Source: an uncultured virus (IMG/VR IMGVR_UViG_3300013132_000045)
Lineage: Duplodnaviria; Heunggongvirae; Uroviricota; Caudoviricetes
DNA length: 64,000 nucleotides
Strand: one strand, 5' to 3'
IMG/VR virus record: IMGVR_UViG_3300013132_000045
Shown here: positions 2,845-31,885 of the stretch, one piece after another
Numbering within the stretch: the stretch's first letter is position 1
Layout of the letters: each line of letters opens with the position of its first letter
Notes under the pieces: model-generated
The model's database searches: none
The model's input: only the letters and a program-made list of their open reading frames with translations
Told to the model about the DNA's origin: nothing
Made by a program: the position numbers and the translations under genes

Positions 2845-3321
2845 ATGGGGAAACGAAATGGTGCTGATGATCTTCTTTATTCTCTTTCTGAGTTACGCCC
2901 TGGAGAAGCAAAGCGTCGATTTCGTAAAAGTATTTTTGAAGACTTTCCCACTAAAGGACCATTGGGCCATTGCGCTTGCGCCTATTGTGGCAAATGGAAC
3001 GAAAAGCTAACCATTGATCACATCGTTCCTAAAAGCAGCGGTGGACCACATTTTGCTAAATATAATTTAACGCCAGCATGTTTTTCATGCAATGCATCAA
3101 AAGGAAGCCAGCGTATTTTTGAATGGTGGCGACCAAAAGAATTCTGGACAGAAGAAAGAGAGCGCGTATTATTGGCTTGGATATATGCGCATAGTTTTAT
3201 TAGTGCTCACACTGACGTGGGAAGCTGGGAAGAATGGATGGAACGCACACAACGCACTTTACCAATAAATGAAAAAGCAATTATTAGCCCCTTTCTTTTA
3301 GGGGAATGGTGTGCTATTTAA
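2845..3321 (+). CDS. HNH endonuclease
   Basis: CAYCG...TIDHIVPKSSGG...NLTPACFSCNASKG. Confidence 0.85.
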   Translation: MGKRNGADDLLYSLSELRPGEAKRRFRKSIFEDFPTKGPLGHCACAYCGKWNEKLTIDHIVPKSSGGPHFAKYNLTPACFSCNASKGSQRIFEWWRPKEFWTEERERVLLAWIYAHSFISAHTDVGSWEEWMERTQRTLPINEKAIISPFLLGEWCAI

Positions 3322-13435: not shown

Positions 13436-14185
13436 ATGCCATTGCCAGAAATTCAATTTAATAATGCAGAAGACCAGTTGAAATATGGCGCAAAAGTGCT
13501 AATGGAAGCTGGTTTTTCTCCGCAACAAATTGAACAAATTAGAGAGCGATTGGGCAGTGGTCCTAATAAAATTCCTTATACCAAAGAAAGCACTGGTATG
13601 AGGCGATATATGGTGCAAGAGCTTTTAGCAGCTAATTTAAGCAATAGACAAATTGCTGAAGTGTTGCAATTAAGCAAAGAAACAGTTAGTGCTGATCGTC
13701 ATCATAATCGTAATTTATGGACTGCTCAAATTCTGCAAAGTCAAGATGCCTGGCGGGCTAGATTGATTAAAGAGCAGCAGGAACTGAAAGAAGTGGCCCT
13801 TGAAAGCTTTTTAAGCAGCAAACGAAAGGTGGTAACCACTACTAGAGACAATGGTGATGAAATTGTACGAGTGGAGGAAAGTGCTGGGGAAAGTGGCTTC
13901 TTGGGAGTGGCACGTAGCTGCTTGGAGCAGCAAGCTAAGCTCATTGGCCTTTTTGATGTGAAGCCACAAACAGAAGAAAAAAGTGGTTACAAGGCTTTCC
14001 TGGACAACCTTAGTGCTGAAGTGAAGAAGATTAAAGAAGCAGAAAAGAATAGTGAAGATAGGGCTTCAGCCATTGAAACCAAAGCAGAATTTGATGACAA
14101 TGGAGAGCCCACGGGCAGTAGTAAACCAATGTTGCCAATAGAAGCTCTTGACAATGCCGCTAATGAGCCGGCAGAATGCCCCTGA
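13436..14185 (+). CDS. HTH protein, terminase small subunit-like
   Basis: LSNRQIAEVLQLSKETVSAD HTH, coiled coil, QQAKLIGL. Confidence 0.6.
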   Translation: MPLPEIQFNNAEDQLKYGAKVLMEAGFSPQQIEQIRERLGSGPNKIPYTKESTGMRRYMVQELLAANLSNRQIAEVLQLSKETVSADRHHNRNLWTAQILQSQDAWRARLIKEQQELKEVALESFLSSKRKVVTTTRDNGDEIVRVEESAGESGFLGVARSCLEQQAKLIGLFDVKPQTEEKSGYKAFLDNLSAEVKKIKEAEKNSEDRASAIETKAEFDDNGEPTGSSKPMLPIEALDNAANEPAECP

Positions 14186-15507: not shown

Positions 15508-15810
15508 ATGGTGACAATGATGACTAGCTTTTCTCCAGCCACATTAGCTATTTTGCAAGCTTTTGATGATAAGTATGAAGCTAATTTTCATACTATATAT
15601 TGGCAGGCATCATGCTTGTCTGCTGTATTAAAAGCCTTAGCAGCAAGAATAAAGGGCAGCAATGACATTCGCCAAGATATTCTTGATATTGCAGAAGAGC
15701 TACAAGCTTTCCCTGATCCGCGTAATGTAAAAACTTATGATACGTTTGAATATGGCACTGAGCCATTGCCAAATGATAAGCTTTGGGCTAACCATCACAA
15801 AGGCATATAA
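15508..15810 (+). CDS. Hypothetical protein, divergent LSPAAQAV family member
   Basis: FSPATLAILQAF...SAVLKALA...ILDIAEELQ. Confidence 0.6.
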   Translation: MVTMMTSFSPATLAILQAFDDKYEANFHTIYWQASCLSAVLKALAARIKGSNDIRQDILDIAEELQAFPDPRNVKTYDTFEYGTEPLPNDKLWANHHKGI

Positions 15811-15825
15811 AGCACTATAAAAGCT

Positions 15826-15861
15826 AAAAGAAAAGGGGCCTTGCGGCCCCTTTCTTGCTTT
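15826..15861. terminator. Bidirectional intrinsic terminator
   Basis: AAAAGAAAAGGGGCC-TTGC-GGCCCCTTTCTT; GCAA loop plus U-tract on the minus strand. Confidence 0.8.
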
Positions 15862-16023
15862 GAGGTTCCGATTGGAAGGCTCCTGCGTATCACGATGCAG
15901 GGATCAGTCTCCTCACCCATCCATGTATGGTGGCAAGCCTCGCAGCATTGCCAGACTGATCATCCCATGTCCACCCTCACGGCTTCAACGAAGGGGCTTA
16001 CGCCCAGGACCACCTCAAAGCTC
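15826..16023 (-). ncRNA. Candidate structured ncRNA (~200 nt), family unknown
   Basis: 10-bp and 9-bp perfect stems, GNRA loops on the minus strand, promoter TTGCCT-N17-TATGCT, terminator. Confidence 0.65.
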
Positions 16024-16125
16024 ATAAAGCATAACATACGAAACCATGCAAGGCAAAGAGCTTTTGTGGTAGGGTTGACCCTGCTAGGAGACTGGCAGGC
16101 CTCACTACTTATTTTTCTTAAAACA

Positions 16126-16479
16126 ATGCTTAAACTCTCTATCCTCGCTTCCATTGCCATTGGTGCCTGTGCGCCTGCTGCAGTGGAGGCCGCTTCAGCG
16201 TGCGGAATTGGCTCCTACTATGGTCCAGGCTTTCATGGTCGCTCTACGGCTAGTGGCGAACGCTTCAACTCTCAAGGTCTCACTGCCGCCCATCGCTCCC
16301 TGCCGCTTGGAAGCCGCGTAAAAGTGACCAATCAGGCCAATGGCCGCTCTGTGCTGCTTAGGATCAATGATCGCGGACCGACGTATGGCAGTCGCATCAT
16401 TGACTTGTCAGAAAGTGCATTTGCTCGAATTGCTAGCTTAAATCAGGGACTGGCAAGAGTCTGCTACAACATTGCCTAG
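16126..16479 (+). CDS. rlpA: RlpA-family lytic transglycosylase (DPBB) with signal peptide/lipobox-like N-terminus
   Basis: SYYGPGFHGRSTASGERF, TAAHRSLPLGS, RINDRGP, RIIDLS. Confidence 0.9.
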   Translation: MLKLSILASIAIGACAPAAVEAASACGIGSYYGPGFHGRSTASGERFNSQGLTAAHRSLPLGSRVKVTNQANGRSVLLRINDRGPTYGSRIIDLSESAFARIASLNQGLARVCYNIA

Positions 16480-16837: not shown

Positions 16838-18970
16838 ATGAAGCTTGATTCTTTAATTTATGACTACGAGGATGCTGGTCGTCCTGAAATCCTTGAAGCC
16901 GTTAGCGCCGCAATGAGGCGTTATCTCAAGGGCGAAAAATGCACTGGTTTGCAGCTTGCTCCGCGAGTGGGAAAACAGTCAATTGCTGTTTTGATTGCAA
17001 ATGAAGCAAGGGCTCGAAATGTTCCTTTTGTTCACATAATTGTACCTTGGACCAATTTGAGTCATCAAATTGTTGACGTAAAAAAAAACAAGCGCACGTT
17101 TGATTTTTACAAGGCTTATGGCACCACTGAACCTTTCCGCGCTGACATCGTAGAAACCGTCCCTCACCATAAGTATTACACTAGCTACACAAATCGTCCG
17201 ACTTTGTTTGTGTCAACAGTTCAATTGCTACTGCATAATATTAATGTAATAGTTAAAGCCGTTGAATACGCCATTCAAACCACGAGAATGCGCCCAGTGT
17301 TCATCATTGACGAAGTCCAGTTGATGGGGGCGGGAATGCCTTGGTACGAAATGATTGAGAAGCTTATTGGAGCGGGAGCATATATCATCTCAATGACAGG
17401 CACCGAGCGCCGTTTAGATAAGAAAAATATTATTGGTTTTGAATTTCGAGAAGTTGAAGGATCTAAAAAAGATCCTTCGGCGCATAAAATCCTCAAGGGG
17501 GTCAAAACAGATGACAATGGCGACAAAATTGCTTCCATAGCAGTGGGCACTCTTAGCTCTGTTGAGTATGAAATTATTCCCACTGGATCCACTCCTGTGC
17601 CAATTTCAATGGCTTTTGATCGGGGATGGTGCGTGGGAATGGATGTAAAAACTTTTGATTTTAAATTTGTTGATTTAGCCACCGGCAAGCAATCTTCGGT
17701 CACTCAGGCATCACTGGAAAAAACTCGGTCTCATCTTAGCGATTGGCTGCAAAGTGACGAATGTATTTTCATGGCTGTTCAACACGTTCTCAGCGATTTA
17801 ATTCGACGACGAATTGGTTTAAATCTTAAAGATGCAAAAGCCATGTTCATTACATTGTCAGACACAGATTCAGTTAAAAGAAGCAAAAATAAACACATTG
17901 ACGAAGGAGCAAATTATCATGCCCGTAAAATTAGGAATGAATTTAATAAGCAACTTTCCTTGTTGCCTCAATTAATTCGTTCCAGGCTTGGACGTGTAAA
18001 TGCAGAAATTTGTACTTCCATGCTTTCAAGCGGAGAGCCTGATAAAGCAGCCATGGAAAAGTTGAAACGATTTGCACTTATTGAAATGGATGTCAATGGC
18101 AATGAACCAATTGACGTATTGTTTGTTAAAAATATGGGAGTAGTAGGGCTTGATGTGCCAGAATTAAAAACCATGGCTAATTTGTGTAGCAATTCTGCAG
18201 ATGCGCCTACCACTATTCAAACTAATCTGCGAATTGTCACAAAATGGGAGAAGAGTGATGTAAATGCTCTGCTTATACTTCCTGCTCATTATCATTCGCT
18301 TCAATTTCGCGACATGTGCGGAAAGTGGAGTAATAAAATTCGAGTGAGCACTTTTGAAGAAGATAGTGATTATGAAAAGATAATTAAAGAAAAGGAAATT
18401 GAAGACTGTCCGGTGGTGGACGGGTCTGGCAAGGTCCACTCGTATAGTACTCATAATGGTAATATTATTGAAACCGATCTAGAAGCTACGTTGGCTGCGG
18501 CTCGCCGTAAATATAAAATTGCAAACACTTTAAGTAATTATCAGCTCATTGAAAGCATAAAAGAAGGGGCGTTTCCTTTAGCTGATGAAGATTTTGATGA
18601 GGCTTTGAATGATAAGCGTGACAACGTTTCATCTTCAGGGGTAGAAGTAATTGATGTAAGTGACGAAAGAAATAAGATTGAAAAAGACAGCGAATCGTTT
18701 GGGTCAAAAGCAAATAGGCTTGCTAGTCAAATCGTAAAATACAATGACGACCCCAAGGAATGGCTGAGGATTAACAAGCAATTGATTGCAAAGGCTAAAT
18801 TTAAGTGTAATATTAGCCAATATCAAAGCAAGCAAGAAATTGTAGACCCAGAGGTGCTTTTTCAATTGGTAAATGCTTTGGATGAGGCATATATTGACAT
18901 TAAGGCGGAGCAGGATCGCCGGCAAGGTCAAGGGCGTTTTGTTGCTGAATATTATGCGGAGGTTGAATGA
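16838..18970 (+). CDS. Divergent superfamily-2 helicase/ATPase
   Basis: APRVGKQS (I), FIIDEVQ (II), SMTGT (III), MGVVGLDVPELK (V), QTNLRI (VI). Confidence 0.75.
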   Translation: MKLDSLIYDYEDAGRPEILEAVSAAMRRYLKGEKCTGLQLAPRVGKQSIAVLIANEARARNVPFVHIIVPWTNLSHQIVDVKKNKRTFDFYKAYGTTEPFRADIVETVPHHKYYTSYTNRPTLFVSTVQLLLHNINVIVKAVEYAIQTTRMRPVFIIDEVQLMGAGMPWYEMIEKLIGAGAYIISMTGTERRLDKKNIIGFEFREVEGSKKDPSAHKILKGVKTDDNGDKIASIAVGTLSSVEYEIIPTGSTPVPISMAFDRGWCVGMDVKTFDFKFVDLATGKQSSVTQASLEKTRSHLSDWLQSDECIFMAVQHVLSDLIRRRIGLNLKDAKAMFITLSDTDSVKRSKNKHIDEGANYHARKIRNEFNKQLSLLPQLIRSRLGRVNAEICTSMLSSGEPDKAAMEKLKRFALIEMDVNGNEPIDVLFVKNMGVVGLDVPELKTMANLCSNSADAPTTIQTNLRIVTKWEKSDVNALLILPAHYHSLQFRDMCGKWSNKIRVSTFEEDSDYEKIIKEKEIEDCPVVDGSGKVHSYSTHNGNIIETDLEATLAAARRKYKIANTLSNYQLIESIKEGAFPLADEDFDEALNDKRDNVSSSGVEVIDVSDERNKIEKDSESFGSKANRLASQIVKYNDDPKEWLRINKQLIAKAKFKCNISQYQSKQEIVDPEVLFQLVNALDEAYIDIKAEQDRRQGQGRFVAEYYAEVE

Positions 18971-29778: not shown

Positions 29779-29927
29779 CGGAAGGGAAGGGCTTGGTTTG
29801 CGCTAGCCTGCTTTGGTTGGTCGCGCTCCGCTTGGCGGGGCTTTTGTTTTCATGACGTTTAAGGAACAAGCAAAGGCTGAAAAAAGTGATAGGATTCCCT
29901 GTATCTCGTCACGGAGCTTGCCCCACC

Positions 29928-30449
29928 ATGTCGCCTCCAGCCCATTTGCCACTCGACATCGAAAGGATGGCGAGTAAGTTACTTGTTGATCCATCCAGTC
30001 CAACAGGCTTAAGGTGGAAAATAGACCACTGGAAAATGAGGGCCGGCGACATTGCTGGCACCATTAAAGACACTGGTCACTGCATCGTCAATTTTTACGG
30101 CAAGCGATTTCACACCCATCGCATTGTTTGGGCTCTGCATAATCAACAAGATCCTGGTCCCTATACTGTTGATCACATTGATCGCAATCCCGCAAACAAT
30201 GATCCCGCGAATTTAAGGCTGGCTACTTACGAAGGTCAGATGCGCAACACGCGCCCCAAAAAATCTAAATATGGCAGGGGTGTGAAAAAAATTGACAACA
30301 GGTACTACGCCCGAATTATTGTCAATAATAAAGACATTAGCCTAGGCGGATTCGCCACAGCCGAAGAAGCCCGGCAGCGGGCAGCGCAAGCTCGCGAAGT
30401 CTATGCACAGCAAAATCATTCGTCCCTTTATCCGACTCTTGAATCATGA
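29928..30449 (+). mobile_element. Free-standing HNH-AP2 homing endonuclease
   Basis: SPTGLRWK, HRIVWALH, VDHIDRNPANNDPANLR; AP2-like YYARI...LGGFATAEEA. Confidence 0.85.
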
Positions 30450-31885
30450 ATCTCAAAGAAAAAGCTCGTTGCACTCCCATTGCCCGCACTGGGCGCGTAC
30501 AGGATTGGATGGACAATCCCGAAAATCGTCACGCTGTTAGCTGCACCACGTTTGTAGTAGAAGATTCAATGGAAGGGAGAGATGGCATTGAAGCATCTTG
30601 GCGCTTTACTTCCCATGGGCTACGAAATGGTGCTGGCGTGGCTATACATTTGTCTAAACTGCGCGGTAAGGGCGCAGAAAATGGCAAGGGCCTTGTTGCC
30701 AGTGGTCCCGTAAGCTTCGGTAAAATCTATTCCACGCTCAATGAAATCTTGCGTCGTGGTGGCGTCTATAAGAACGGCGCTGTAGTTCTTCATTTGGACT
30801 ATGACCACCCTGATCTTCTTGACTTCATCACTGCTTCCCGCAGCGAACTTCCCTGGGCAAAGCGTTGCGTAAACGTAGATCAAGACTTCTTGGAAAAGCT
30901 TCCAAGCGGAGTTATTGATGCCTTGCTGAAGTCGATTGCCAATGGCGACGTATGGTTGATGAAGAAAAGATGGAACAATAAAGGAGAGCGCATTTATGGA
31001 AATGTGTGCCTTGAAGTGTTACTTCCTTCTCGCGGCACTTGTCTATTGCAGCATGTCAATCTTGGTGCCTGTTCGCTAGGCGATATTCGGCCTGCTTTCG
31101 CTGAAGGCATGACACAGCTCTGTGAGCTTCATGCTCGCACTGGCGTTGGCGACACTGGCGAATATCTTTTTCCTTCCATTGATAAGCAAGTGGGCCTTGG
31201 CATTCTTGGCTTAGCTAATTTTCTTTCCATCCATGGCATTTCTTATGAGGATCTTGGTGATGCTTTAGAAGCCTATTTAATAATGGACCCTGATGAATGG
31301 CTTTACACTTATGAAGAATCATCTGCTGGAGAATTTGTCTGGGCTTTAGACCAAGGCATCAAGAAAGCTGCCTTTGTAGCAATGCAGCATGGCATGGAAC
31401 GCGCCTTTGCCATTGCTCCTACTGCCTCCTGCTCCTATCGCTATCTTGACTCTCGTGGCTTCACCACGGCTCCTGAAATTGCTCCTCCCATTGACCGTCT
31501 TGTAGATAGGGACAGTGAAACAATGGGAGTGGAACGGTTTGATTATGGAGCAGTGGAAATTGCTGAAGAAGTGGGCTGGAAAGCATTTCGTAAAGTGGCT
31601 GATGGCATTTGCACTTTGCTTGAACGCACTGGTCTGTTCCATGGCTATTCCATGAACTGGTGGGCTGATCAAGTGGTGTGTGATGAAGCTTTTATTAAAG
31701 AATGGTTGGATAGTCCTCAAACCTCCATTTATTATGCTTTGCAAGTGCAATCTGGCACACAAGCTAAAGATGATGTTGGGGTAGAATTAGGGGAGAGCCT
31801 AACCAGCTTCTTTGGGCTGGAAAATGAAAACGAGCCTTTGGCTTGTTCTATAGAAACAGGCTTTTGCGCCGCCTGTTCCGAGTGA
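30446..31885 (+). CDS. nrdA: Ribonucleotide reductase alpha subunit, minimal cyanophage class I type
   Basis: ARTGRVQDW, VSCT, GPVSF, LRRGG, NVCLE, IAPTASCS, IYY, C-terminal CAAC; beta gene adjacent. Confidence 0.88.
   Translation: MNLKEKARCTPIARTGRVQDWMDNPENRHAVSCTTFVVEDSMEGRDGIEASWRFTSHGLRNGAGVAIHLSKLRGKGAENGKGLVASGPVSFGKIYSTLNEILRRGGVYKNGAVVLHLDYDHPDLLDFITASRSELPWAKRCVNVDQDFLEKLPSGVIDALLKSIANGDVWLMKKRWNNKGERIYGNVCLEVLLPSRGTCLLQHVNLGACSLGDIRPAFAEGMTQLCELHARTGVGDTGEYLFPSIDKQVGLGILGLANFLSIHGISYEDLGDALEAYLIMDPDEWLYTYEESSAGEFVWALDQGIKKAAFVAMQHGMERAFAIAPTASCSYRYLDSRGFTTAPEIAPPIDRLVDRDSETMGVERFDYGAVEIAEEVGWKAFRKVADGICTLLERTGLFHGYSMNWWADQVVCDEAFIKEWLDSPQTSIYYALQVQSGTQAKDDVGVELGESLTSFFGLENENEPLACSIETGFCAACSE

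Follow-up and report, generated by a model that had tools for sequence, protein, structure and literature searches.

Only a small number of stand-alone structured RNAs encoded by phages have been described, and a role is known for fewer still. The stand-alone structured RNAs of bacteria and phages whose function is known mostly have protein partners. In riboswitch aptamers, conservation is typically clustered in the junctions while the helices covary. Most self-cleaving ribozymes are unlike single-copy genes with their own promoter and terminator, and we know of no established class of RNA sponges for small molecules. Among the much larger structured RNAs, an association with phages is stated for GOLLD and ROOL (10.1101/2024.12.08.627333).

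In this study, we analysed a 64,000-nt stretch of DNA of an uncultured tailed phage (IMG/VR record IMGVR_UViG_3300013132_000045), referred to here as the window. Sequence comparison indicates that its minus strand very probably carries a stand-alone gene for a highly structured non-coding RNA of about 195 nt, which founds a new family in S-CBS4-like cyanosiphoviruses. The family is new in that it is without a relative in Rfam 15 or in the literature searched, and this claim of novelty covers the RNA family, not its mechanism. We define the family by a three-way P1-P2-Px junction with AUCGGA, CC-GNRA-GG in P2, nested P3 and P4, an extended -10 element and an intrinsic terminator.

Results

The locus and its homologs

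The window bears tailed-phage genes (portal, terminase, tape-measure protein, primase/helicase and ribonucleotide reductase), and the nearest cultured phage by portal is Synechococcus phage S-CBS4 (63.6% identity). The RNA locus is a 315-nt gap between a 100-aa ORF (15508-15810, plus strand) and an RlpA-like DPBB gene (Table 1). A first-pass annotation, made from the sequence alone, had proposed here a stand-alone, undescribed phage RNA on the minus strand, and each string that it quoted (stems, GNRA loops, promoter, GCAA hairpin and U-tract) is present where it had placed it. The covariance model R1, built from 14 sequences, matches the window with 132.1 bits and finds one copy of the RNA in it.

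Table 1. Positions of the predicted RNA, its signals and its structural elements in the window
Feature	Position	Strand	Basis or remark
Predicted transcript, ~195 nt	15826..16021	-	R1 match 15853-16030, 132.1 bits; ends predicted
-35-like hexamer TTGCCT	16051..16056	-	17 nt upstream of -10; sequence only, weak
Extended -10 TGTTATGCT (TGnTAnnnT)	16028..16036	-	Conserved in homolog flanks
P1 5' strand GCUUUGAGGU	16012..16021	-	Pairs with 15857-15866
Unpaired junction base G16011	16011	-	
P2 5' strand GUCC	16007..16010	-	Pairs with GGAC 15969-15972
P2a GGGC-GUAA-GCCC	15994-16005	-	Abuts P2b
P2b CUUC-GUU-GAAG	15983-15993	-	Abuts P2a
P2c mini-hairpin CC-GUGA-GG, then GU	15973..15982	-	Core block CCG-YRA-GG
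P2 3' strand GGAC	15969..15972	-	Pairs with GUCC 16007-16010
Px 5' strand GGGA	15963..15966	-	Pairs with UUCC 15874-15877
P3 5' strand GAUCAGUCU	15953..15961	-	Pairs with 15902-15910
P3a hairpin GGCAAUGCU-GCGA-GGCUUGCC	15932..15952	-	Independent folding of 3' domain
P3b hairpin CCAU-ACAUGG-AUGG	15917..15930	-	Loop bears conserved CAUGG
Purine-rich junction strand GUGAGG, unpaired	15911..15916	-	Alignment; family consensus GNRAGG
P3 3' strand AGACUGAUC	15902..15910	-	Pairs with 15953-15961
P4 hairpin CCUGC-(10 nt)-GCAGG	15882..15901	-	Length variable; per-sequence folds
Px 3' strand UUCC	15874..15877	-	Long-range partner of GGGA
Junction strand AUCGGA, unpaired, near-invariant	15867..15872	-	Homolog alignment
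P1 3' strand ACCUCAAAGC	15857..15866	-	Pairs with 16012-16021
Intrinsic terminator GAAAGGGGCC-GCAA-GGCCCCUUUU, then CUUUU	15822..15854	-	Terminator scan, both strands
RlpA-like DPBB gene	16126-16479	+	Pfam E 2e-23

Related RlpA-like genes led to three loci bearing a divergent version of the element, in which compensatory changes were visible. Patterns taken from the conserved blocks gave 8 IMG/VR, 16 genome and 86 metagenome loci. Of the 86 metagenome loci, 70 were recovered by R1, as were 2 of the 16 genome loci (102-157 bits), the genome loci having come from an exact-pattern scan of 185,579 species; the remaining metagenome and genome loci were discarded as high-GC, coding-like chance matches without an R1 score. 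With a looser pattern, IMG/VR yielded 74 loci, 59 of them real (R1 at least 48 bits). Two matches with 22.8 and 12.7 bits (L206 and L195) were rejected as chance, being high-GC or coding-like and having neither promoter nor terminator.

Since the search patterns impose part of the invariance, loci were also fetched through the neighbouring protein c7, with no RNA pattern involved. The RNA was present in 8 of 8 loci reached in this way (23.8-113 bits). Five of these form a divergent clade in which GGUCC is changed to GGCUC or GGCCC and GGAC to GAGC or GGGC, the two sets of changes compensating each other. In the main set, GGUCCUG and AGGGUGGAC are invariant partly because the search patterns demand it; both vary in the clade reached through c7. 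In total, 87 distinct cores were found, which are only 53-72% identical to the core of the window.

S-CBS4 has a copy on the minus strand of NC_016766 (64534-64735, 147.8 bits), where it lies in an unannotated gap between gp092 and gp093, a 'lipoprotein precursor'. In four further cyanophages with an rlpA gene, R1 did not detect the RNA (best score 11.9 bits). A blastn search of cultured phages with the intergenic region returned only short terminator-like stretches, the same search with the S-CBS4 copy as query returned S-CBS4 alone, and E. coli genomes gave no match. The only two real matches in bacterial genomes are L034 and L039, contigs of 9.3 and 5.8 kb that carry the labels of a Bacteroidetes MAG and an Aquiluna MAG. 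Because both share the phage gene order of the window, they probably represent phage sequence mis-binned into MAGs and give no evidence of a host. As far as seen, the family is restricted to S-CBS4-like cyanosiphoviruses of fresh and estuarine waters, for which we infer a cyanobacterial host from the nearest cultured phage.

Strand and transcription signals

The locus folds better than shuffled sequences on both strands (z of -3.31 on the minus and -3.74 on the plus strand), and therefore folding energy alone cannot pick the strand. The good plus-strand fold would suit a cis element of that strand (a leader or riboswitch of rlpA, or the 3' UTR of the upstream operon) or a DNA site such as an origin or packaging site. 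However, in the paired columns of the homologs G·U cells number 199 and A·C cells 5. This settles the minus strand, since the same 199 cells would be C·A mismatches on the plus strand. GNRA or UUCG loops also arise on the minus strand only, with the GNRA loops of the window exactly as first quoted, and the conserved promoter and U-tract are likewise minus-strand features.

The 5' end of the RNA would lie about 7 nt past the -10 element, flush with P1, and the 3' end in the U-tract. The promoter first proposed, TTGCCT and TATGCT separated by 17 nt with an extended TG, stands in part. TGnTAnnnT was found 6-8 nt ahead of P1 in 46 of 46 distinct upstream flanks, whereas the -35 hexamer showed no conservation across the upstream alignment of the homologs. 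A generic sigma-70 scan did not call the promoter of the window RNA, because it scores 8/12. Downstream, an explicit rule of stem plus U-tract (a GC-rich stem, then 6 or more U within 8 nt, on the RNA strand) held for 56 of 56 distinct flanks. A test for the terminator in minimum-energy folds (17/56) was dropped, since the U-tract pairs with the A-rich linker in such folds. The GCAA hairpin with its U-tract is present in the window as had been proposed, but it is bidirectional: it reads as a terminator both for the minus-strand RNA gene and for the convergent plus-strand operon that ends at 15810. One run guessed to be RNA was uninformative as to expression, as it gave two contigs of a relative that span both genes. 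No conserved ORF was found in the RNA, the core of which varies in size from 149 to 184 nt.

Between the RNA promoter and rlpA lies a further hairpin, CCTGC-TAGGAGACTG-GCAGG (16080-16099, plus strand). In the homologs, its stems compensate (CTGCC/GGCAG, TCAGG/CCTGA, CTGG/CCAG and others) and the loop core GG(A/C)GAC is kept. Just ahead of it, the plus strand has a conserved TGnTAnnnT-like box, TGGTAGGGT (16067-16075). Because this box directly precedes the hairpin, the hairpin is probably the 5'-terminal stem-loop with which the rlpA mRNA begins. The promoters of the RNA and of rlpA would then stand back to back, about 37 nt apart.

Secondary structure

The predicted fold nests three three-way junctions one inside another, and in each of them a long strand, either conserved or rich in purines, lies on the 3' side. 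From the 5' end, the order is P1, G, P2 (enclosing U, P2a, P2b, P2c and GU), Px, AUCGGA, P1' and the terminator. Px encloses U, P3 (with P3a, P3b with its CAUGG loop, and the GNRAGG strand), P4 and an A-rich strand.

The comparative data bear out most of the stems that were read from the window at first. The closing stem GCTTTGAGGT/ACCTCAAAGC is P1, in which each of the inner 5 pairs shows compensatory changes, and the 9-bp internal stem GATCAGTCT/AGACTGATC is P3, with compensatory changes in 8 of 9 pairs. The GTCC/GGAC stem corresponds to P2. It is 100% paired in 40 sequences, and two of its pairs have compensatory changes (U-A to C-G in 5 sequences, C-G to U-A in 4). RNAalifold instead paired UCC of GGUCC with GGA of AUCGGA, together with GA and UC, and this pairing had been part of R1; it was rejected, as it is broken in 5 and 4 sequences. 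In the divergent homologs, GGUCC and GGAC covary together while AUCGGA stays constant. Since the rival pairing is broken and GGUCC and GGAC compensate, the P2 helix stands and AUCGGA is conserved but unpaired. AUCGGA was found in 58 of 58 full-length IMG/VR members, obtained with a search pattern that did not demand it. A local hairpin of TTCC and GGAA, also proposed at first, did not survive the comparison: UUCC belongs to Px, where 5 of 5 pairs show compensatory changes, and GGAA to the unpaired AUCGGA strand.

For other elements, the evidence comes from folding the segments separately. Folded alone, the P2a/P2b segment gives exactly two hairpins that abut each other in 56 of 57 distinct homologs, even though its sequence and length differ among them. 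The 3' domain takes the consensus shape in 46 of 56 sequences when folded by itself, and in P3b all 4 pairs have compensatory changes, with CAUGG conserved in the main clade. The CCTGC/GCAGG stem of the first reading is P4; the family alignment is poor there, so its support comes from per-sequence folds, which bear it out. The two C-G pairs of P2c are invariant (40/40 and 38/40 sequences), which leaves no covariation possible, and P2c is thus a predicted pairing. The outer hairpins of the RNA end in GNRA or UUCG loops. Minimum-energy folds of the whole RNA gave the full consensus shape in just 19 of 56 sequences.

Covariation among collected homologs had been named as a check on the RNA, and it was found. 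Among 57-58 distinct sequences, 98.7% of the paired cells were complementary, compared with 75.4% after column shuffling and 40-46% with slid partners. Double changes occurred in 23 of 31 pairs, a count that keeps the row of the weak match L079 (18.7 bits), which was left out of the other script counts. The IMG/VR and mixed alignments (A5 and A6) were similar; across the sets, 98% of cells were paired compared with 70-75% in shuffles, and 23-24 of 29-31 pairs compensated, in alignments (A3, A5 and A6) that were fitted to the model and lean towards its own structure. An alignment made by MAFFT from sequence only already had compensatory changes in 22 of 32 pairs. All helices that are able to vary covary. 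The conserved letters, about 30 nucleotides, lie in the junctions: G, CC-GNRA-GG, AUCGGA and the purine-rich strand.

Two natural variants are reduced. The copy in L228 (5938-6096, minus strand) is without P2a, P2b and CAUGG, its P3b loop being different, and has UGCGGA in place of AUCGGA. The copy in L229 (6193-6380, minus strand) is without P3b and its CAUGG. Both retain the promoter, the terminator, P1, P2, CC-GNRA-GG, Px, P3, P4 and CGGA. These natural 'deletion mutants', lacking P2a/P2b or P3b, delimit the minimal core of the RNA.

Genomic context

The RNA was the sole gene on its own strand at every locus examined; in the window and at the homologous loci, the flanking genes all lie on the opposite strand, in agreement with the first-pass annotation, which had it transcribed against all neighbours. 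Convergent to the RNA is a conserved block of primase/helicase, c7, c5 and c4 (followed by c1 and c3 in some), seen in 8 of 8 loci reached through c7. In the main clade, 60 of 60 loci with sufficient flanking sequence have an RlpA-like gene upstream of the RNA in divergent orientation. This constant neighbour, and the position of the RNA at the end of a helicase-primase module, would suit a cis element or DNA site. However, the divergent arrangement with rlpA, which had been noted from the window, does not hold throughout: rlpA adjoins the RNA in 3 of the 8 c7-reached loci, and the RNA is kept without adjacent rlpA in the other 5, which belong to the divergent clade. At one c7-reached locus, a DUF2786 protein takes the place of rlpA upstream of the RNA. 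Since the RNA is kept without it, the link to rlpA is one of synteny and not a requirement.

No RNA-binding family, and no other informative family, was found among the neighbour proteins scanned (Pfam, PHROGs and PDB sequence searches, with an Atlas look-up for c5). An AlphaFold model of c1 (pLDDT 78.5) had no fold match in PDB by Foldseek. The module protein c7 is a conserved protein of 249 aa (13436-14185, plus strand) with the homolog gp086 in S-CBS4. Its homolog is labelled 'RNase E' (S-CBS4, PHROG 645); the c7 of the window has a weak GerE/HTH match over residues 56-87 and no PDB relative, and the RNase E label looks unreliable.

Some further genes of the window are recorded here. A 710-aa protein just past rlpA (16838-18970, plus strand) has no Pfam or PHROG family, and its sole PDB sequence match is weak (helicase-loader, E 0.004, residues 9-150). 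The ribonucleotide reductase gene (30446-31885) starts within the last 4 nt of an HNH endonuclease ORF (29886-30449, plus strand; PHROG E 5e-42), and another HNH gene is found at 2845-3321. Both may be homing endonucleases beside a conserved gene.

Discussion

The case for an undescribed, stand-alone phage RNA on the minus strand is made by covariation, strand-specific G·U pairs and conserved signals, together with the lack of an Rfam 15 match. For its role, the best explanation overall is a structured RNA gene that acts in trans through its folded core, a view whose chances we regard as evenly balanced. The RNA would act through the three-dimensional core formed by its junctions. This reading is preferred because the junction strands are conserved while the helices drift by compensation and the periphery is capped or dispensable, and because the RNA has no long unstructured seed, conserved ORF or switchable expression platform. 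More specifically, but only tentatively and with somewhat less than even confidence, we propose that the folded core binds a protein and does not act by base pairing. It would offer a specific binding site, and the RNA would serve as a ribonucleoprotein scaffold or as a decoy. A protein partner is ranked first by analogy with stand-alone structured RNAs of known function. The RNA may be made early in infection, since its promoter looks like one of the host sigma-70 type.

The same pattern of conservation, centred on the junctions, would fit an aptamer or a ribozyme as well as it fits a protein partner. It is fairly unlikely, in our estimate, that the junction core is a ligand pocket or catalytic centre, that is, that the RNA is a free-standing aptamer or sponge or a new trans-acting ribozyme. 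If this were true, it would define a class of phage counter-measures, or of tools for taking over the host, that consist of RNA only. A small-molecule aptamer, a free-standing RNA that would sense or sequester a metabolite or a nucleotide used in immune signalling, is unlikely. It would account for near-invariant nucleotides that cluster in multi-helix junctions, for helices that covary with loops that are merely capped, and for a core that survives the loss of peripheral hairpins. However, no Rfam riboswitch was matched even at E<=10, and the RNA has a self-contained terminator, no expression platform and no downstream gene on the same strand.

A ribozyme, either self-cleaving or acting on other RNA, seems improbable. 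The complex fold with its conserved junction nucleotides is of a kind that it would need, and the GNRA loops could lock a tertiary fold; however, none of the self-cleaving or other ribozyme families of Rfam 15 was matched, by inspection the lengths of the junction strands (1, 0 and 6 nt) are not those of a hammerhead core, and the RNA comes from a single-copy gene with its own promoter and terminator. We consider it quite unlikely that the RNA is a base-pairing sRNA or sponge directed by its purine-rich strand or CAUGG loop at host or phage RNA. The strand GUGAGGAG of the window is complementary to 8 nt of the conserved motif of the Yfr1 sRNA, and intrinsic terminator ends are typical of stable sRNAs. 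Against this, the purine-rich strand varies (GUAAGG, CAGGAG, GCGAGG, GUUUGG and others) without a common complementarity, CAUGG is missing in L228 and L229, and the conserved stretches are short and sit within junctions. A cis element of the plus strand or a DNA site is highly improbable given the minus-strand G·U pairs, loops and signals, the persistence of the RNA without rlpA and its absence from the four other cyanophages that carry rlpA. The probability left after these readings goes to other roles that are not listed here.

The trans-acting RNA that we prefer lends itself to study. The family comprises about 90 distinct natural variants, its secondary structure is well determined, and since it occurs in a cultured pair, S-CBS4 and Synechococcus sp. 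CB0101, its function can be tested in the laboratory. To identify the partner or action of the RNA would reveal an unrecognised step in the infection of picocyanobacteria by cyanophages.

Comparison with known RNAs

The RNA had been called undescribed at first sight, and a comparison with the 4227 models of Rfam 15 agrees with this: no match reached the gathering threshold in the whole window. At E<=10, the best match in the region 15600-16300 had 22.3 bits, compared with a cut-off of 50, and lay on the terminator. In seven homologous loci, there were 23 sub-threshold matches and no family that recurred on the RNA body. ARAGORN found no tRNA or tmRNA gene in the window, which confirms that the RNA is neither. 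A literature search with the core strings, S-CBS4 and cyanophage non-coding RNA found nothing relevant, and 'rlpA' and 'rare lipoprotein' are absent from the main text of two motif catalogues (PMC2864571 and PMC5737381). Several likenesses were dropped as short strings with no model support: AGGGUGG, which resembles the T-box sequence, GUAAGGGUG, which resembles part of RNase P RNA, and GGUCC, which resembles the GGUCCGA of Y RNA.

With 6S RNA and Y RNAs, the RNA shares a similar size, paired 5' and 3' ends, a 3' end derived from a terminator and a conserved element at the base of the closing stem. The first-pass annotation had set 6S RNA aside, and rightly so, as there is no Rfam match and the consensus shape is branched, in contrast to a rod with a central bubble. 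Unlike Y RNA and YrlA, which combine a Ro-binding helix with a tRNA-like module and are mostly encoded beside an rsr (TROVE) gene, the RNA is without such a module or an Rfam match, and Pfam found no Ro/TROVE family among 20 + 8 proteins of the window.

Riboswitch aptamers (for example the lysine and purine classes) share with the RNA the junction-centred conservation, the covarying helices and a periphery capped by tetraloops. In contrast to them, the RNA is free-standing and antisense to its neighbours, with no expression platform or regulated gene downstream. It lies opposite to all flanking genes, a self-contained terminator hairpin follows it in 56 of 56 flanks, and no conserved alternative pairing with P1' was seen by inspection.

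The pRNA of phi29-type phages, about 170 nt long, resembles the RNA in that a phage encodes it as a separate unit under its own promoter, in that a helix of the 5' and 3' ends closes it, and in its three-way-junction core. However, there is no Rfam match to it, the loops here are GNRA, UUCG, tri- or variable loops, and no conserved loop-to-loop complementarity that could form a pRNA-like ring was found by inspection. In addition, the phage here is a siphovirus with a terminase, whereas pRNA belongs to phi29-like podoviruses. GOLLD, ROOL, raiA and OLE share with the RNA strong covariation, many helices and a function that is at most partly known. In contrast to these, the RNA has no sequence or structure match in Rfam 15, its core is far smaller (about 150-185 nt compared with several hundred), and it belongs to one cyanophage lineage.
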